NCBI GenBank assembly: GCA_016214995.1
Contig: JACRML010000027.1
Span: 1,766 to 65,765, forward strand
Length of the DNA: 64,000 nt
Direction of reading: 5' to 3'
From: Deltaproteobacteria bacterium
GTDB lineage: Bacteria > Desulfobacterota > GWC2-55-46 > UBA9637
The translations under genes were made by a program, and so were the position numbers. Under the pieces are notes generated by a model, which was given only the letters and a program-made list of their open reading frames with translations, ran no database searches and was not told the origin of the DNA. The first letter of the stretch is position 1; the number at the start of each line of letters is the position of its first letter. This document shows positions 51,052 through 59,737 of this stretch, piece by piece.

Positions 51052-53796
51052 TTAAGATTCTCTTTTCCGCTCCGCACCTGTTTTAGCCTCTTCATACCAG
51101 TTATCAAAGTGATGTTTAAACAGAAGTTTTGAAAATTCAGAATCTTTATTGACCATCTCATAGACGGTTTTTGGGGTTGTTGACTCGAAGCCCTTAAATA
51201 TTATTTCCCCCGCTTTACAAAATATCTCTACATGTTTAATCCCTTCTATAACGAATACGCCAAACCACAATTCTAACAATTTAACGTGGAAGAAAAATGC
51301 GCTTTGTATCTCTTTGTCCAGTTCTGATACCGGAACCTCCCGCTTAAAAAACAATCCTTTTCCTTTAGTTTCTCTTATATATTCCTTTAATGCATCTTCA
51401 CTTAACGCTTGCCCTTTATTATATATATCGCCAGTAATGTTTAATATTCTGAGAGAAGAAAGTGGCTCCCCTGAAACAATTCTTCTGAAATCCTTAAAAC
51501 ATTCCTGCGCCAACACTTGCGCCAAATCTTTTGCCTCAGACACGTTCTTATGTACAATGACATTTTCCAGCTTGTCGTCCAGACTCGGAGGCATGAGCAA
51601 GCCATAAGTCTTATCAATGTAAATATCCAACGGATATTTGAGGTTGTGGTTATTCCTTTTCAGTCTTTCTTCTTCAAGCAGTCTTTCCCTCTTTGCCCTT
51701 ACCATAGAACTTCTATCGGTACCTCTGGCAGCCTCATTTATCTTCTCAGCAATAGCAACCTTTACCTCGCCCCAAAAACCGTCCTTCATTACAATAATCT
51801 CGGCCTTGCTGCCAAATGTGATAAAAAGACCTGCCTCCATCTCCTGCCCTATTGCAGCCTCCAGTTCCTCTCTATATGTTTTTTCCAGCCTGTATTCTTT
51901 TTCCTTTACCTCTAACATCTTGGCTTCTAATCCTTTTTCACCGCTCGATATAGCCTTCTCTATTGAAGCCTGCTCCCTGGCAAGCTCCTCTTTCATTGCC
52001 TCAAAGTTTTTATGAATGGTATGAAGAAGCTCCTCCTCTAACACATGAGGCACCCTTTTTTCCAATTGCTCTTTATATCTCTTCATAATAAGCCGAATAT
52101 CTCCTGCCAGGGCAATAAGATTAGAAACTCCGCCGGAAAATACGGCGGCATCGCCTAATAGGTTATTTAATTTTATGTTTCTTTTATCGCTTGTAATATC
52201 CGGAGTTGAAGAGCCGTATCTGCTCGCAACGTTGAGGATGGGCTTGTAAAAATTTGACTCCATGAAGTCAGCCATGGTGATTTCCTTGGCTCTCAGGGTT
52301 TTCCTTGTAAAATCCTTCATATCTACAAAAAGGTGCCCTTCGGCTTCAACCTCCAATTCTCTGAGAATCGGTCTCTCATCTGCAGAAAAAAGATAGAGCC
52401 TCCCCCTCTCGTATTCCATCCGCAATGTCTCGCTGGAAAACTCGCCGCGCCTATCAACCATCAGCCCACGCATAGAACTTACAAATCTTTCTACATCCTC
52501 GTCAAACTTGTATGCAACAAACGCCTCTATTATATCGGTAATAGCCGCACCCTTTTTCCTGCCTATTCTAAACAAATTGCGAAATGAAGTTTTTGTAATT
52601 GAAGCCACGAACTCCTCTATTACATTGATTCTTTCTAATCTAGCCGTATCATTTTGAAACTGTATCTTTACATCATCTAAACCTTGTTTCAGCCTCGTCA
52701 TTACTTTAGAATCAGTGGACAGCATCTGGATAAGTCTATTATCCGCATATAGTTCAGCAAGCATCGCATTAACCCCTATTCCAGGGGTGTCATAATCCAG
52801 AAGATAATCGCTTATCAGCTGTCTTAAATAATTTATATTAGAAAGCTTGAGGAGCTCTTCTGTAAGAGGTGAATCCTTTTTTACCTCATTCTCCATCGCA
52901 GCGATTATGCCTGCGACATCTTTAGCCTTTGCAGCCGTCTTATCATAAACCGGCCTCAATAAAGAAACCACATTATCCCCAAGCCCATATGGGTTTAAAT
53001 CGCTGTTAATAATATTTCCGCCTTGAATAGTCAGAAAACTCATCGGCGTAAACCATTCCTCAAAGCTTTCCAATTTTGCCGAACTATAGGAAGCCGCTAT
53101 CTGTTTCAGTTCAGATGCCACATTTTTTACAGCAGCTTTATAAACAAAATAGAGGGCAAGCCCTATCACCTGATCCAGTCTTTCGTAGTTAAAGCCTTTT
53201 ACCTTAGCGCTTCTTATAATACTGTCTTTCCTCTTTGCTGTGGCATTGACCATAGCCATAATTGCCAAAATAGAGGTCTTTTCCACGCCTTCCAGACGCA
53301 TCTCTTCAAGCACAGCCTTTCTCAATATTCCCCTAACCAGCGTATAATATCTCTTTCCATATCCATCTGCCCCAAGCCAAGTCTTTAATATTCCGCTATC
53401 AAGCATCGGAGTTGTGGTTAGTATTTCACATGCAATACCTTTCTCTGCTGAATCCGGCAAAAAATAATCTGCCCTGTATGTCTTATCTATAAGGATTGTT
53501 TTAATATCAAGAAGGGATGAGAAGCTGTCCTTTACTTCCTGTTCAGAATTTGGTTCAAAACGTCTTTTTAAAAGCAGTATCAATGACAGAATAGATTTTT
53601 CTATTACAGGTTCATCCTCTACCCCAAACAAGTAAGGTATCTTTAAATCTTTTACAGATTCACCCAGTCGGAATCTCATATAGGCAGGTTCTATCAGCCA
53701 TAATTTGCCTGTATTACAGTCAAACCCTTTCCGTAAAATATCATCAAAGAGATTGAGTCTATCTTTTATGAATTTATAATCGGCGTCTGCTGGCAT
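51052..53796 (-). CDS. Large hypothetical protein (914 aa) with a candidate split class-III-cyclase-like palm domain
   Basis: Long uninterrupted ORF. Residues ~485-695 carry HLFVDMKDFT, LLGDAAVFSG, then a ~90-aa coiled-coil insert, then GLFITFGSKAEIIV...GEVKVAIAEKINEAARG. Confidence 0.6.
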   Translation of the reverse strand: MPADADYKFIKDRLNLFDDILRKGFDCNTGKLWLIEPAYMRFRLGESVKDLKIPYLFGVEDEPVIEKSILSLILLLKRRFEPNSEQEVKDSFSSLLDIKTILIDKTYRADYFLPDSAEKGIACEILTTTPMLDSGILKTWLGADGYGKRYYTLVRGILRKAVLEEMRLEGVEKTSILAIMAMVNATAKRKDSIIRSAKVKGFNYERLDQVIGLALYFVYKAAVKNVASELKQIAASYSSAKLESFEEWFTPMSFLTIQGGNIINSDLNPYGLGDNVVSLLRPVYDKTAAKAKDVAGIIAAMENEVKKDSPLTEELLKLSNINYLRQLISDYLLDYDTPGIGVNAMLAELYADNRLIQMLSTDSKVMTRLKQGLDDVKIQFQNDTARLERINVIEEFVASITKTSFRNLFRIGRKKGAAITDIIEAFVAYKFDEDVERFVSSMRGLMVDRRGEFSSETLRMEYERGRLYLFSADERPILRELEVEAEGHLFVDMKDFTRKTLRAKEITMADFMESNFYKPILNVASRYGSSTPDITSDKRNIKLNNLLGDAAVFSGGVSNLIALAGDIRLIMKRYKEQLEKRVPHVLEEELLHTIHKNFEAMKEELAREQASIEKAISSGEKGLEAKMLEVKEKEYRLEKTYREELEAAIGQEMEAGLFITFGSKAEIIVMKDGFWGEVKVAIAEKINEAARGTDRSSMVRAKRERLLEEERLKRNNHNLKYPLDIYIDKTYGLLMPPSLDDKLENVIVHKNVSEAKDLAQVLAQECFKDFRRIVSGEPLSSLRILNITGDIYNKGQALSEDALKEYIRETKGKGLFFKREVPVSELDKEIQSAFFFHVKLLELWFGVFVIEGIKHVEIFCKAGEIIFKGFESTTPKTVYEMVNKDSEFSKLLFKHHFDNWYEEAKTGAERKRES

Positions 53797-54551: not shown

Positions 54552-54787
54552 TCTATCTCCACCTTATAGTCTTCAACAACAGTATTCGCCAAAAGTTTTT
54601 CGCACATCTCTTTAAGCCGTTTATCTGCATCTTTTTGAGATACGCCGTCAATCTCTATTTCTATAAACTTGCCTATGCGCAATCCTTTGACTTCTTTATA
54701 TCCCATAGATTCCAGCGCCCCGCATACAGCCTTTCCCTGCGGGTCAAGAACTCCTTTTTTCAATGTTACATAAACTTTTGCCTTCAT
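54548..54787 (-). CDS. purS: Phosphoribosylformylglycinamidine synthase subunit PurS
   Basis: [21 protein letters not shown]..., 79 aa. ATG 54787; overlaps purQ by 4 nt. Confidence 0.9.
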
Positions 54788-55221
54788 TTGTTTTCTCCCT
54801 GCAACAAAATTTCTTTGACCTTGCGATGTATATCTTCCAGCAGCGGACGGCTTACGCTGATAAATGTCTTGATGGAGTTCCACCGTATATCAAGATAATC
54901 ATGGGCTACGATATTTCTCAAGACCGCCCATGTCTCTATCTTTTTGCCGAAGTCTTCATGGAAATATCTTGCTCCGAAAGCAAACAACACTTCTTTATAT
55001 GTTTGAGGCATGGGAAAGTCTTCACCGGCAAGAAGAAGCTTGGCCATATCAATAGTTGAATTGACAAGATTTTCAATCCACCGCTCAAGATTTCTGCGTT
55101 TGTCTTTGTCGAACTGATAATCGTTCCATGAATACTCCGCAAATTTCCAAAAATCCGCCAATTCACCGGCAAAAAAATCCAGATGTCTTGCAAGCCGCTC
55201 TCTTTCTCTATTCGCCGGCAT
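54784..55221 (-). CDS. hepT: HepT-like (DUF86/HEPN) toxin
   Basis: RNIVAHDY (Rx4HxY) motif. Its stop overlaps the purS start by 4 nt. Confidence 0.85.
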   Translation of the reverse strand: MPANRERERLARHLDFFAGELADFWKFAEYSWNDYQFDKDKRRNLERWIENLVNSTIDMAKLLLAGEDFPMPQTYKEVLFAFGARYFHEDFGKKIETWAVLRNIVAHDYLDIRWNSIKTFISVSRPLLEDIHRKVKEILLQGENK

Positions 55222-55639
55222 GAGTCCTTATCTCCTCTTTCAGCTTCCAATAGCTTATGACAAATTCCCTGAAATCCTCGGCTTCGGCTGTAACCCTCAT
55301 CATAAAATCAACATACAACCCCCTGTCCTTTATCACAAGAGGCGCACCGCTTATAGCGCTCTCGGCAACGCTCGATGCCGCCCTGTTGAGAACCAACAGG
55401 TCAACCTCTTTGCCTAAAAGCCCCTCTATCTCACGCCATAAAACAGTTTCCCCATCATATCTTGCGTCGCTATCTTCCCATTCCAGTCGTGATGTTTTCG
55501 GTTTGAAATAAACCGCTATATCAACATCCGAATCCATCCCGCCTTTACCTTTTGCCCATGAACCGAAGAGAAAGGCCATAACAATATCGTCCCTCTTTTC
55601 AAAATATGGCTGTAAAAGTGTTATCATTTCATTCTTCAT
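55208..55639 (-). CDS. mntA: MntA-like nucleotidyltransferase antitoxin
   Basis: FLFGSWAKG...DSDVDIAV (GSx10DxD) minimal NTase motif. Confidence 0.85.
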   Translation of the reverse strand: MKNEMITLLQPYFEKRDDIVMAFLFGSWAKGKGGMDSDVDIAVYFKPKTSRLEWEDSDARYDGETVLWREIEGLLGKEVDLLVLNRAASSVAESAISGAPLVIKDRGLYVDFMMRVTAEAEDFREFVISYWKLKEEIRTHAGE

Positions 55640-55733
55640 AAACTACCTTCCCTGCCACAATCGTCTTCACAACCCGTCCCTTCATCTTCCATCCGTCAAA
55701 CGGCGTATTCCTGCTCTTTGATTTTAACTTTTT
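55629..55733 (-). pseudogene. Orphan 3'-terminal fragment of a dihydroorotase gene (duplicate of the pyrC end)
   Basis: Reads [34 protein letters not shown], versus [34 protein letters not shown] at the pyrC C-terminus. 31 nt are identical (55634-55664 = 58441-58471). Confidence 0.75.
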
Positions 55734-55737
55734 GGAT

Positions 55738-55799
55738 AATTCTGGGGACACCATACTGAACTGAACTCTCCCTGAATTGAGTAAGGTGTCCCCGGAATT
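55738..55799. repeat. 15-bp imperfect inverted repeat at the islet edge
   Basis: AATTCTGGGGACACC (55738-55752) ... GGTGTCCCCGGAATT (55785-55799), 32-nt loop. Confidence 0.7.
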
Positions 55800-55811
55800 C
55801 CTGAATCTTTA

Positions 55812-55940
55812 TTAATATCCAGCACCATCTACAGCGCAAACTGTGCAACCTTTTGATTCATCATATTTTGAAACATTGGCAGAACTCACAAGAATGTTTA
55901 CCTCTTTGCTTATCTCCTGTTCAGTTTTTTCAACTTCCAT
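55812..55940 (-). CDS. Candidate RiPP precursor peptide (42 aa)
   Basis: Not in ORF track. GGAAAGGAGGTG-N6-ATG, 26 nt downstream of the radical SAM gene: MEVEKTEQEISKEVNILVSSANVSKYDESKGCTVCAVDGAGY, followed by tandem stops. Confidence 0.55.
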   Translation of the reverse strand: MEVEKTEQEISKEVNILVSSANVSKYDESKGCTVCAVDGAGY

Positions 55941-55966
55941 GTATATCACCTCCTTTCCGTTATAGA

Positions 55967-57217
55967 TCAATTACTCACAACCAAGTCATACATCTTTTTA
56001 GTTTCCAAACACTTTAGCTCCAATGTGCTGTCTTTTTTATAAACCTCCTTGTAATAAGGACAAGTATGACATAATGGAAGACAATTGCATTTTTTACATT
56101 CAGCATCTAATGCAAGAGTTTCTTTTCTATATTCATTTAATTTTTGAAATTGATCCTTAAAAGGCACTTCATGTCTATAATCCACATATTTTTCTCTAAA
56201 CATAACACAAAAATGAATTTTAAAATCTAAAGAGATAAAACACTCTGATATTCCGACATTACAAAAATGTTCACCTTTATCTATCAATTCTTTTCTAAAC
56301 TCTTTTTCACTATCAAATATTTTTTTTAGATTTATTATCTTCTTCTCTGAAAAAATAAATTTGTCTAAACATTCTGGCTCAATTTCATGCTCCTTAGGTG
56401 CGCTATTTCCATCTAATGTATGTGCCATCACAGGATTAATATTGTGTTGGCTATTCATTTTATTACAGAAACGTCTCATGGCATTGAGGCTTGAATAATT
56501 TTCCTTTAATAAAACTGTCTGAATTACAAAGTTGAGATTATTTCTTGATAAAGCATCTATGCCATTTAAAAACTTATTATAATTATTTGCACTTCCTGTA
56601 ATTTGAATATATTCTTCTTCGGAAGAACCATACTGACTGACTTTTATCATCTTTGGGGGGTATTTATTGAAAGTGGCAACAACTTTAGGAATAAATGAGC
56701 CATTTGTTACAATGGAGACCACAAAACCTTTTCTTTTTGCATAAGTATAAATATCTATGAAATCTTTTCTTAAAGTGCATTCGCCGCCAGTAAACCAAAG
56801 AAATAAGACACCACTATCACATAAGTTGTCCAAAAGGTTTATTAATGAATCAAATGAAGGCTCTTTTTTCCCTTGCAGCGGTTTAGCATAGCAATGAATG
56901 CAATCAAAATTACATTGACCCGTAAGTTCAATTCCAACTTTCCATGGGTAAATATCATTTGAATTTGGCTTTGATAGATTCCTTTTGTTGGTGAAATTAG
57001 CTTTATCATTTATTTTCAGAAATTCTTCAAAGATTTGTTGAACTATATTATCCGGTATGGAAGCCTTATGGTTAAGTGTGCATTTTATGTCGCTCTCCAA
57101 AATTATCGCATTTTCATTACAGTATGAAATCTGCGGGTCTATCAACCACATTTTCCCCGCAATATTTCTGATTACTATTCTGTCCCAATATGCAATAAAC
57201 TCTTTTGAATATTTCAT
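55967..57217 (-). CDS. Radical SAM / SPASM-domain peptide-modifying enzyme
   Basis: CNFDCIHC (CX3CX2C). C-terminal auxiliary-cluster cysteines CNVGISEC ... CKKCNCLPLCHTC ... C. ~95-aa N-terminal extension. Confidence 0.88.
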   Translation of the reverse strand: MKYSKEFIAYWDRIVIRNIAGKMWLIDPQISYCNENAIILESDIKCTLNHKASIPDNIVQQIFEEFLKINDKANFTNKRNLSKPNSNDIYPWKVGIELTGQCNFDCIHCYAKPLQGKKEPSFDSLINLLDNLCDSGVLFLWFTGGECTLRKDFIDIYTYAKRKGFVVSIVTNGSFIPKVVATFNKYPPKMIKVSQYGSSEEEYIQITGSANNYNKFLNGIDALSRNNLNFVIQTVLLKENYSSLNAMRRFCNKMNSQHNINPVMAHTLDGNSAPKEHEIEPECLDKFIFSEKKIINLKKIFDSEKEFRKELIDKGEHFCNVGISECFISLDFKIHFCVMFREKYVDYRHEVPFKDQFQKLNEYRKETLALDAECKKCNCLPLCHTCPYYKEVYKKDSTLELKCLETKKMYDLVVSN

Positions 57218-57293
57218 ACTTATTGATTTTTCCTGAATGAAAACATATGAATGAAAACATAAAGAAACATAAATAGAAACAAAGGGGACAGAT

Positions 57294-57524
57294 TTATTTA
57301 AGCATTGCTTCGAAATCTTTGGGTCTTATAATTTTTGTATTATGGAATGAATCTAATACAAGAATATCCTCATCTCCTGTAATAAGATAATCGGCTTTCC
57401 CTTCCAATGCCACTCCAAGCAAAAAGTTATCTTTCTTATCCCTGCAAACATCAACCTTTTCACTTGGCAAAACTACTATTGCATAGCTGTCAAGAAGCGA
57501 AAAGAGTTCTTTGATTCTTTTCAT
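57294..57524 (-). pseudogene. PIN-domain toxin remnant (C-terminal half only)
   Basis: VCRDKKDNFLLGVALEGKADYLITGDEDILVL aligns with the C-half of the PIN protein at 22064..22498. The N-terminal ~65 aa, including the first acidic residue, are absent, with a stop 9 codons upstream. Confidence 0.55.
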
Positions 57525-57744
57525 ATCGCCTTTGCCTGACAGATTCTACCTCCCCGGTAATCTCCTCTATTGTTATAGGATATTTTCGGGCAGACTCCCT
57601 GAACTCTTTCAGAAGGCTTTTAAACCTCGCTGCAAATAGCTCTTTTTCCAGCATCGTCAACACCTCTATCTTTTTTGCCAATGGCAAACTCTTAACTGCC
57701 TTTTTAATTTCATTTAAACCTGAATCTGAAATTGTTTTTAGCAT
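57490..57744 (-). CDS. Putative antitoxin-like small protein (partner of the decayed PIN)
   Basis: GAAGGAGG-N7-ATG, 84 aa helical protein. Position and overlap with the PIN remnant are the only evidence. Confidence 0.4.
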   Translation of the reverse strand: MLKTISDSGLNEIKKAVKSLPLAKKIEVLTMLEKELFAARFKSLLKEFRESARKYPITIEEITGEVESVRQRRYEKNQRTLFAS

Positions 57745-57979
57745 AACAACACCTCCTTCAAATCATGGCAGTAATATTCAATATTGCCGTATATACCTTT
57801 TGATTTAATGCTAACAAAATCACCGGAGAGAGTAAAGTTTTTTGATATTGTGATATCCTTTCAAAAATAAATCTGATCCCCTTTATCCTTTAGATTCCTA
57901 TACGGTGCGCCTTTTAGGTCAACTGCCTTTGCCCTATCTTTTGTGAGATTTGCCCTTGGTATCCGTTTTTCCACAAGCC

Positions 57980-58234
57980 CTACTTCAACACCGTCTCCCC
58001 GGAAAAAACCGGGACAGGGATATACCGTGAAGGCTTTTTTTTCTGATACCTTTTAATAAATCTGTCGATTTTTGAAGAGACATCGGCGCTGAAGTATTTT
58101 TCACCGCACTGTTTGCATATATCTGCAGGCAGGTCTTCACAGATTATCAGTTCTTTTTGGATGTGAACCTCCAAATCTATTTTTTTATGCTCCAATTCCC
58201 CGCCGCATAGGTCGCAAAGGTCTTTCTCCTTCAT
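57980..58234 (-). CDS. YgiT-type (MqsA N-terminal-like) zinc-finger protein
   Basis: CDLCGG ... x ... CKQCGEKYF, two CxxC pairs with the typical spacing. ATG 58234. Confidence 0.7.
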   Translation of the reverse strand: MKEKDLCDLCGGELEHKKIDLEVHIQKELIICEDLPADICKQCGEKYFSADVSSKIDRFIKRYQKKKPSRYIPVPVFSGETVLK

Positions 58235-58282
58235 CTTGGCTCCATTGTCCCAATAGAACACCCTATTGATTTATATAGACTC

Positions 58283-58392
58283 GTAGGGTGGGCTGTGCCC
58301 ACCGCAAACATTGTCCTTTGTAATGGTGGGCGCAGCCCACCCTACCATTTTCATCCCCCTTTGTGCCTGCCTGTGCGTTGCACGCAGACAGG
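58283..58392. repeat. REP-like palindromes
   Basis: GTAGGGTGGGCTGTGCCCACC ... GGTGGGCGCAGCCCACCCTAC (58283-58345), and cctgcctgtgcgt tgc acgcagacagg (58366-58392). Confidence 0.65.
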
Positions 58393-58435
58393 AGCCAAAG
58401 GCTCGTGAGGGTTTACTCCGAAATGCTTTGTATTT

Positions 58436-59737
58436 TTATCCTTCATAAACTACCTTCCCTGCCACAATCGTTTTTGAAGCCATTCCCTTCATCCTCCATC
58501 CATTAAACGGAGTGTTTTTGCTTTTGGATTTTAATTTTTTAACATCAACAACCCATTCCATATTCAAATCAACAATTGTTATATCAGCATCTTTACCATT
58601 TGCAAGAGAGCCTTTTGTAGAAAGTCCTAAAATCTTTGCGGGGTTCGCAGAGAGTTTTTCAACAAGGGTGTTTAATGAGACAACCCCTTCGTCAACAAGT
58701 CTCAAAGATAGAGGTAGCGCTGTTTCAAGACCAATTATCCCGTTTGCTGCCTTATCAAACTCAACATCCTTTTCATCAATATTTTGAGGAGCATGGTCTG
58801 TTGCTATCGCATCTATGGTTCCGTCTTTAAGCCCAATCTTTATCGCATCAATATCGGTTTTGGCTCTAAGCGGAGGATTCATCTTGGCATTGGTATTATA
58901 ACCCATAACAGCCTCGTCTGTTAAAGTAAAATGATGCGGCGCAGCCTCTGCTGAAATATTTAATAACCCCCTTTGTTTTGCGTTTCTTACAAGTTCGACG
59001 GCCCCCTTCGTGCTGATATGGGCGATATGCAATCTCCCTCCCGTAAGCTCGGCCAGCGCAATATCCCTCGCAACCATAATATCTTCTTTGGCATTTGGAA
59101 TGCCTCTGAGCCCCAGTTTTGTTGATATAAAACCCTCGTTCATTACGCCGTCCGGCGCAAGCCCGGTATCCTCACAGTGGCTTATAATTAGAAAATTAAA
59201 AAGTTTTGCATATTCCATGGCCAATCTCATAAAGCCGCTGTTCACAATGGGTCTTCCGTCATCTGACAACGCAACGCATCCCGAATCTTTTAACTCCCCT
59301 ATCTCTGCAAGCGTCTCTCCTTTCAATTCTTTGCTTATTGCGCCCACAGGAAATACATTCACAGCGCCTTCTTCCGCAGCTTTTTTAAGTATATACCTTG
59401 CGACAGAGGCATTGTCGTTTACAGGGTTTGTATTTGCCATACATGCAATTGACGTGAATCCTCCGGCTGCGGCTGCCATTGTGCCTGTCTTTATCGTTTC
59501 TTTATATTCGTAGCCAGGCTCCCGCAAGTGCGTGTGCATGTCAATAAATCCTGAACAGACAATTAGGCCGGTTGCATCTATGATATTCCAGCCATCAGAC
59601 TGGGAATCTGGGGCTGGAGTAGAAAGATTCGGTTTTACAGCGGCAATTTTCCCGCCGACTGCATACACATCAAACAGACCGTCGATGCCGCTTGCAGGGT
59701 CAATCACCCTTCCGCCTTTGATCAAGAGCCTATTCAC
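58436..59737 (-). CDS. pyrC: Dihydroorotase
   Basis: [10 protein letters not shown] metal motif and DHAP near the C-terminus. 433 aa. Confidence 0.93.

Follow-up and report, generated by a model that had tools for sequence, protein, structure and literature searches.

A rare two-gene cassette encoding a radical SAM enzyme and a short cysteine-containing peptide: a probable RiPP-type maturase and precursor pair of a previously undescribed family

Does a radical S-adenosylmethionine (SAM) gene in the genome of a Deltaproteobacteria bacterium, together with the 42-residue open reading frame (ORF) that follows it, constitute an enzyme and its peptide substrate? RiPPs are ribosomally made peptides which are later modified by enzymes, and the first-pass annotation of a 64,000-nucleotide stretch of contig JACRML010000027.1, hereafter the window, had proposed a two-gene candidate of this kind. 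The analysis described here indicates that the two genes very probably form a self-contained, RiPP-type maturase-precursor pair which belongs to a previously undescribed family.

Both genes are located on the minus strand of the window, which the earlier description had left unstated. The predicted radical SAM peptide maturase (55967..57217, 416 aa) corresponds to NCBI entry MBI5047998.1, annotated merely as 'radical SAM protein', the full title of the record being 'MAG: radical SAM protein [Deltaproteobacteria bacterium]' (MAG, metagenome-assembled genome). Its TGA stop codon (55967-55969) is separated by 26 nt from the ATG (55938-55940) of the peptide ORF, MEVEKTEQEISKEVNILVSSANVSKYDESKGCTVCAVDGAGY followed by a stop codon (55812..55940; 42 aa, 42 codons), and a Shine-Dalgarno (SD) sequence, GGAAAGGAGGTG (55947..55958), ends 6 nt before this ATG. 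All sequence details of the claimed unannotated 42-aa ORF, lying 26 nt after the enzyme behind a strong SD, were therefore found to hold. In the protein collection the enzyme comes from NCBI, whereas the exact window peptide has a Logan assembly as its only source, as expected if the deposited MAG lacks an annotation for the peptide. The putative precursor divides into a leader part (residues 1-30; 55851..55940), which is acidic, variable and carries in the peptide alignment a strand-like I-x-V-x-S-[VA]-x-V pattern, and a core (residues 31-42, GCTVCAVDGAGY, plus the stop codon; 55812..55850), which conforms to the family motif C-x-[VI]-C-[GA]-x-[DNQ]-G-x-G-Y-COOH. The layout initially suggested, an acidic and polar leader with a short C-terminal core, is thus borne out across the family as a variable leader joined to a near-invariant C-terminus.

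Peptide ORFs of the family found beside relatives of the enzyme measure 41-50 aa, and their alignment evidences which positions are held constant. Residues C32, C35, G39, G41 and Y42 are invariant, also in the loci L016 and L034 (homologous loci are cited by L numbers and proteins by P numbers), and so is V18 of the leader; the last residue is a Tyr, preceded by Gly, in every peptide found, and three residues after Cys35 the choice is restricted to D, N or Q. Pairwise comparison of the last 12 codons yields 207 synonymous against 101 non-synonymous differences, the Cys, Gly and Tyr residues being kept despite changed codons, a pattern which indicates purifying selection on the core. An SD-like purine-rich stretch precedes the peptide start in all nine cassettes examined, being weaker in L006 (GAGGT) and L013 (GGAAGGTG), and start and stop codons of the two genes overlap or abut in L010, L013 and L034. 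A scan of eight of the peptides against NCBIfam at an expectation value (E) of up to 10 matched no peptide family and returned nothing relevant. Judged from this conservation, the small ORF is a real gene, far beyond what chance would produce.

The association of peptide and enzyme was analyzed from both sides. Among 5.8 billion protein clusters, a word-indexed search retrieved only nine full-length relatives of the enzyme with 38-100% identity, and a family peptide adjoins every enzyme homologue that has sufficient flanking sequence, which amounts to 10 distinct cassettes with enzyme identity down to about 34%; the possibility that the small ORF is not conserved beside homologous enzymes is thereby discarded. 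The peptide is encoded downstream of the enzyme in L001-4 and L005 (in both cases at 28 nt) and in L008, L009, L010-12 and L013/14, and upstream, at 65 nt, in L006/L007; it adjoins the enzyme also in L020, L024, L026, L032 and L034, and in L015 the contig ends shortly after the peptide start. Enzyme followed by peptide is the usual order within the family, so that the arrangement in the window, initially regarded as unusual, is no oddity. Even next to P0066, an enzyme only about 34% identical to P0008 and encoded on a contig of 60% G+C content (GC), a family peptide again follows, ending in ...ACEICGPDGGGY. In the reverse direction, a peptide-profile search of the whole collection recovered 11 clusters, and those which could be placed on contigs either adjoin the enzyme or lie on a contig that breaks inside it. 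A degenerate DNA pattern of the core, run over JGI metagenome contigs, gave 10 matches, half of them true peptides and half chance occurrences, and the enzyme is adjacent in four of the five true cases. The fifth, L030 (495-987), is the sole peptide copy without an adjoining enzyme: a transposase of an insertion sequence (IS; DDE_Tnp_1), on the opposite strand, abuts in the enzyme's place, which suggests that this cassette was disrupted by IS insertion. Behind P0010 and P0013, which are more distant relatives of the enzyme, the small ORFs are unrelated, and this confines the peptide family to the close clade. Other small ORFs containing Cys, such as ...SRCSNSCCFYRDGATW, were also noted in L021 (4782-5048) and L023 (2107-2310), after radical SAM relatives of about 30% identity devoid of the N-terminal domain, and these may be further undescribed maturase-peptide pairs. 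Because no neighbour is conserved between loci, the functional unit of the family is the two genes, which are inherited together, share their orientation and are in many cases translationally coupled.

The enzyme itself is clearly a radical SAM protein, as inferred from the Pfam radical SAM core model PF04055 (73.8 bits against a cut-off of 29.5), the only model by which Pfam recognises it, and it belongs to the radical SAM superfamily. The CX3CX2C motif of the radical SAM [4Fe-4S] cluster, described in the first-pass annotation for this 416-aa protein, is read directly from the sequence as GQCNFDCIHC (C102, C106 and C109; 56891..56914); it is invariant in both the 9-sequence and the 44-sequence alignments, and the GGE motif (G144, G145, E146) is likewise invariant. 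Beyond the core, family assignment becomes elusive. Among the NCBIfam models there were 42 sub-threshold matches and no membership, with scores overall some 4-10 times below the curated cut-offs: MoaA 84 against 325 bits, AhbD 79 against 500, NirJ2 67 against 500, viperin 60 against 180, MftC (TIGR03962) 58 against 265, StsB 58 against 625, PqqE 52.5 against 381, BlsE 52 against 400 and SkfB 39 against 300, with no other model of a sacti- or ranthipeptide-type maturase among the best 25 matches. PADLOC returned only pVip models (67-72 bits) across the radical SAM core, and no full-length match to a defence system. Assignments to anSME, MoaA, heme, PqqE, MftC or viperin enzymes were consequently rejected, as the NCBIfam, Pfam and PADLOC matches are generic and below threshold. 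The classification thus leaves the enzyme outside every curated NCBIfam family, and no non-RiPP enzyme family with another substrate claims it.

The C-terminal part of the protein (56009..56263) has the character of an auxiliary-cluster region. The SPASM-type cysteines noted earlier are present as CNVGISEC (C319 and C326) and CKKCNCLPLCHTC (C374, C377, C383 and C386), and together with C337 and C403 they make up eight cysteines which are invariant in the 9-member clade, as many as two auxiliary clusters would need for full ligation. Their central part is spaced C-x2-C-x5-C-x2-C and is thereby one residue shorter than the classical SPASM motif C-x2-C-x5-C-x3-C (PMC3023750). An AlphaFold2 model built from 44 relatives (predicted local distance difference test score, pLDDT, 91; predicted template-modelling score, pTM, 0.91) retrieves with Foldseek SuiB, BlsE, SkfB, CteB and anSME as best PDB folds, the alignments to SPASM maturases being full-length. 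SuiB scores an E of 5e-12 and a template-modelling (TM) score of 0.58, CteB and anSME fall among the matches with TM 0.55-0.62, and 377-464 columns are aligned, with 14-16% identity in the alignments to SuiB and SkfB. By sequence, the best PDB relative is the sactipeptide maturase SkfB (E 2.6e-15).

In front of the barrel, residues ~1-75 (56993..57217) form a domain which in the AlphaFold2 models consists of a helix, three strands and one helix, and in which F7, R17, I26, D27, P28, S31 and Y32 are invariant. Compared by hhalign with the PqqD-type N-termini of distant relatives, it is matched with 86% probability (E 5e-6) over the first hairpin and the subsequent DPxxSY; in one of these distant full-length relatives, P0081, the N-terminus passes the PqqD threshold. 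From such alignments the domain looks like a cut-down derivative of a RiPP recognition element (RRE), a leader-binding domain, which keeps the first hairpin only.

These elements can be put together in a mechanism. The enzyme and peptide genes would be co-transcribed and, in several homologues, also translationally coupled; the 42-aa peptide would be the substrate, and we infer that its leader motif I-x-V-x-S-V-x-V docks on the small N-terminal beta-sheet domain of the enzyme, which would set the core into the active site. There the CX3CX2C cluster would cleave S-adenosylmethionine, and the resulting 5'-deoxyadenosyl radical would abstract a hydrogen from the core, after which two auxiliary Fe-S clusters held by the eight conserved cysteines would take the second electron and complete the oxidation. 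As to the bond formed, we tentatively favour, at something close to an even chance, one or two intramolecular thioether cross-links starting from the invariant cysteines, because the two cysteines never vary and the position three residues after Cys35 is limited to D, N or Q. In the first thioether, which would be ranthipeptide-like, Cys35 would be bonded to this residue at its beta or gamma carbon, and the G-x-G-Y-COOH tail would serve either as the site of a second cross-link or as a recognition element. Indeed, D, N and Q all bear a functional group beside the target carbon; Asp and Asn are established beta-carbon acceptors (freyrasin, NxxcA and QhpD), and QhpD also uses the gamma carbon of Glu, the acid that corresponds to Gln (PMC8326336). 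The sacti- or ranthipeptide chemistry and the Cys-Asp link envisaged in the first-pass annotation are at this stage guesses.

A number of observations weigh against this interpretation, or against parts of it. What connects the peptide to the enzyme as its presumed substrate is genomic association. The Pfam SPASM model PF13186 finds no match, either in the whole protein (E≤0.01) or in its C-terminal 127 aa (E≤10), and is carried only by remote relatives such as P0036, P0040 and P0042; the designation SPASM is based on the eight conserved cysteines and on the fold similarity. A comparable situation is found for the N-terminal RRE, of which one hairpin is homologous to PqqD-type domains: the isolated N-terminal part has no match to PqqD (PF05402) even at E≤10, the alignment to RRE domains spans 26 columns only, the domain folded alone gives a mediocre model (pLDDT 68), and its top Foldseek neighbours, although RRE proteins (TbiB1 first, then McbB and ThcOx), are non-significant (E 1.6). 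In respect to the chemistry, the substrate cysteine of CteB-type thioether synthases probably binds at an open iron site; if all eight cysteines ligated the two auxiliary clusters, no such site would be left, which slightly disfavours a thioether. An obligatory Tyr at the last position is not known from sacti- or ranthipeptides, and it points towards an MftC-like chemistry that needs a free C-terminus. Also, CTVCG is a metal knuckle of rubredoxin type, and the cysteines could be ligands instead of cross-link donors.

The most serious competing explanation, somewhat unlikely in our judgement, retains the same pair of maturase and precursor and replaces the thioether by a mycofactocin-like oxidative decarboxylation of the C-terminal Tyr, as carried out by MftC on MftA. 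This could be followed by formation of a further bond, for example with a cysteine sulfur or a glycine alpha carbon, and in place of a thioether macrocycle the pair would yield a small molecule with redox activity or a signalling function. The Gly-Tyr end found in every peptide speaks for such a reaction, and the tail C-G-V-D-G-A-G-Y is reminiscent of MftA, which invariably ends in Cys-Gly-Val-Tyr. Mycofactocin, too, is a system without transporter, immunity gene or cleavage signal (PMC3023750). Titles cited in one source describe the SPASM enzyme MftC as decarboxylating the C-terminus of MftA (PMC10114670). The MftC model is among the matches of our enzyme and aligns full-length to several of its distant relatives, and the eight auxiliary cysteines are as expected of enzymes with fully ligated clusters. 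However, the 58 bits obtained with this model are far from its cut-off of 265, and the penultimate residue is Gly and not Val, which makes the known second step of MftC, a cross-link at the Val beta carbon, impossible. Genes for MftB, D, E or F and for partner dehydrogenases are absent nearby, both in the window and in the examined loci, and a cofactor without dedicated user enzymes would be ill-suited to a cassette of two genes that is exchanged among distant hosts.

Compared with characterised systems, the pair would work like a minimal maturase and precursor of SCIFF type, and the enzyme belongs to none of the curated maturase families tested. The SCIFF/ranthipeptide systems (CteB-CteA, and freyrasin of Paenibacillus polymyxa) are likewise minimal: a radical SAM/SPASM maturase is paired with a precursor of 40-50 aa that contains Cys, and a dedicated exporter is absent. 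As in CteB, the enzyme would join a leader-binding domain at its N-terminus to a radical SAM barrel and a C-terminal domain for two clusters; CteB is among the best fold matches of the enzyme and Asp is a known thioether acceptor (PMC8326336). On the other hand, SCIFF peptides have six cysteines and are conserved and vertically inherited in Clostridia (PMC8326336), whereas the peptides described here have two cysteines and a G-x-G-Y-COOH end, and their family is extremely rare, of a GC foreign to the host and endowed with eight conserved auxiliary cysteines. Unlike the sacti- and ranthipeptide maturases, the enzyme does not reach any model of that type among its best 25 NCBIfam matches. In the NxxcB-NxxcA pair of Streptococcus orisratti, a single short ring links Asn20 to Cys23 via the beta carbon at i,i+3 (PMC8326336), the same spacing as in the C-x-x-[D/N/Q] element; however, the order of donor and acceptor would here be reversed, giving a mirror image of the N-x-x-C link, the leader differs, no relationship is detected at sequence level and quorum-sensing genes are not nearby. 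The likeness to MftC-MftA lies in a SPASM enzyme with a short peptide that bears an invariant Tyr end and a Cys-Gly-Val element (PMC3023750). It is limited by the Gly-Tyr instead of Val-Tyr end, by the presumed recognition domain, which is fused and truncated here and a separate MftB there, and by the fact that no mft genes occur in any locus. Finally, the systems SkfB-SkfA (sporulation killing factor) and SuiB-SuiA (streptide) comprise enzymes that need a leader to cross-link their peptides, SkfB being the best match by sequence among solved structures and SuiB the best by fold; SkfB has a single-cluster Twitch domain (PMC10114670), unlike the eight-cysteine enzyme. SuiB forms a Lys-Trp bond, and neither Lys nor Trp is conserved in our peptides. 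The SkfB and SuiB systems lie in larger operons which include export functions. Literature searches for the core sequence, and for radical SAM enzymes together with defence, found in the library searched no paper that describes the family or a link to defence islands, the sequence matching only work on rubredoxin and Fe-S peptides.

The family is very rare. An exhaustive profile search covering 1.84 billion representatives identified about six cluster representatives above 280 bits which include the N-terminal domain, and 1467 proteins at E≤1e-30; of the latter, those among the best 150 are mostly about 350-370 aa long and are aligned only from about residue 75 on. Only two loci were found in 185,579 species-representative genomes, one in an Actinomycetota MAG and one in the Desulfovibrionales genome GWA2_65_9, and viral contigs gave no match with either the peptide DNA pattern or the enzyme profile. 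Base composition reveals a further property of the cassette, as its GC is lower than that of the flanks in 8 of the 10 distinct loci. In the Desulfovibrionales genome a stretch of 40-42% GC comprises exactly enzyme and peptide, inserted between housekeeping genes in surroundings of 67-70%, and in the window the GC over the enzyme gene is 27-33%, compared with 40-47% in the flanks. The window cassette lies within a low-GC island of ~2.8 kb (55666..58440) which is bracketed by a duplicated 3' end of pyrC: the last ~105 nt of this gene and 15 nt past its stop form a direct repeat (55614-55733 and 58421-58540; 79% identical) with a perfect core of 32 nt (55634-55665 and 58441-58472). The island resembles what a site-specific insertion into the pyrC 3' end would leave behind, even if no integrase is present, and no target-site duplication was found around the insertion in L020. 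We have also considered an origin as integron cassette, an idea which was dropped as the gaps lack attC-like hairpins and just 76 nt separate the stop of the preceding PIN ORF from the enzyme start. In sum, the cassette is a rare two-gene unit of 1.4-1.5 kb which moves horizontally into variable regions.

Some non-coding features of the island deserve mention. The AT-rich gap of 76 nt on the 5' side of the enzyme gene (57218..57293, minus strand) is the presumed promoter region and contains an exact tandem repeat of 14 nt, two copies of TGAATGAAAACATA at 57234-57261, which could be an operator or promoter element; a consensus scan found no sigma-70-like site in this gap, and over promoters and terminators the scan gave no more sites than in shuffled sequence. 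Just 3' of the peptide stop an inverted repeat on the same strand (55738..55799) folds into a stable RNA hairpin (-30.2 kcal/mol, z -3.5), which may be the transcript end or a stabiliser; it has no U tract and was not called by the terminator scan. A near-perfect palindrome at 58283-58345 (GTAGGGTGGGCTGTGCCCACC ... GGTGGGCGCAGCCCACCCTAC), with arms of 21 nt (95% complementary) and a loop of 21 nt, is sited between pyrC and the island and occurs a single time in the window.

Analysis of the neighbouring genes gives some indications on the possible role. In agreement with the first-pass annotation, neither a protease nor an exporter is encoded in the island that carries the pair, the nearest transporter being a major facilitator superfamily (MFS) gene 4.7 kb away on the opposite strand, past pyrC, pyrB and pyrR; in the examined loci too, none adjoins the pair. 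Because protease, exporter and immunity gene are all missing and the unit of 1.4-1.5 kb moves horizontally, the product is probably no classical secreted bacteriocin, and its action is probably intracellular or dependent on host factors. Several independent cassettes have defence-related or mobile genes as neighbours: a complete Gabija GajB (656 bits) and the end of GajA in L034 (1-2040), a TIR-domain protein directly upstream (L001 3765-4835) and a Phd/YefM antitoxin downstream in L001-4, Schlafen/AlbA_2 and AbiU/AIPR proteins flanking the cassette in L009 (193-2334 and 4185-5936), an HD-domain protein weakly matching the PADLOC dGTPase model in L013 and an integrase fragment in L016. In the window, all on the minus strand, the island also contains a VapB15-like antitoxin ORF (57490-57744) which overlaps a PIN ORF (57294-57524), and an orphan YgiT/MqsA-type zinc-finger ORF of 93 aa (57980-58261) which lacks the helix-turn-helix half of MqsA and has no MqsR-like toxin adjoining it; a HepT/MntA type VII toxin-antitoxin pair (54784-55639) comes immediately behind the orphan pyrC fragment, the end of which is overlapped by the MntA start. 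The match of the PIN ORF, of 76 aa, to the PIN toxin model is confined to the C-terminal half (positions 61-115), and judged by this match the toxin is truncated and probably inactive. Further away, beside purQ, an ORF of 914 aa on the minus strand (51052-53796) has no match to Pfam (E≤1e-5) or PADLOC.

This neighbourhood of defence and toxin-antitoxin genes is suggestive, the sample being small, and raises the idea that the pair works on its own in anti-phage defence or addiction, with the modified peptide as effector or signal, a role which is compatible with either chemistry and which we consider unlikely. It would fit a cassette that is small, rare, patchy in distribution, foreign in GC and free of exporters. 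However, the argument is one of guilt by association over about eight informative loci and no statistics, and any horizontally acquired gene tends toward such variable regions. Moreover, the neighbours are not conserved between loci: no gene is common to different ones, and the TIR protein was rejected as a conserved third component, since a gene unrelated to the L001 TIR gene takes the upstream position in L005. In L010 and L020 the neighbours are housekeeping genes, the similarity to viperins found by PADLOC concerns the generic radical SAM core only, and viral contigs yielded nothing. A more elaborate version, in which a minimal mobile immunity or addiction module would use an intracellular radical-SAM-modified peptide effector, its modification being perhaps a new chemistry of the free C-terminal Tyr such as radical decarboxylation combined with a cysteine cross-link, appears decidedly improbable.

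The remaining explanation, that the small protein is a metal-binding partner with a half-rubredoxin CxxCG knuckle which would bind iron or give ligands or electrons to an enzyme acting on another molecule, can draw on the matches of C-T-V-C-G to peptides in papers on iron-sulfur-binding peptides and rubredoxin (we take it to equal the first knuckle of Clostridium pasteurianum rubredoxin) and on the roughly equimolar expression that translational coupling would yield, and is nevertheless very improbable, as one knuckle gives two ligands only, the first 30 residues are free to vary while conservation in the last 11 and the terminal Tyr is the pattern of a substrate leader and core, no other conserved candidate substrate gene is nearby, and the fold neighbours which match the architecture are peptide-modifying enzymes.

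Radical SAM-peptide pairs have been a recurrent source of new chemistry, from thioethers and C-C cross-links to the cofactors PQQ and mycofactocin. Many uncharacterised pairs of this type exist, and for specialists in RiPPs the present one is thus a clean lead and no surprise, its extra interest residing in the mobile cassette, the defence islands and the terminal Tyr. The family lies outside every curated model tested and has a sharply defined core of two Cys, two Gly and an obligatory final Tyr, and at two genes and ~1.4 kb its cassette is small enough for direct co-expression. Being a mobile unit found beside Gabija, TIR, Abi and toxin-antitoxin genes, it also raises the question of whether some modified peptides act in phage defence or in selfish modules, and not as secreted antibiotics.

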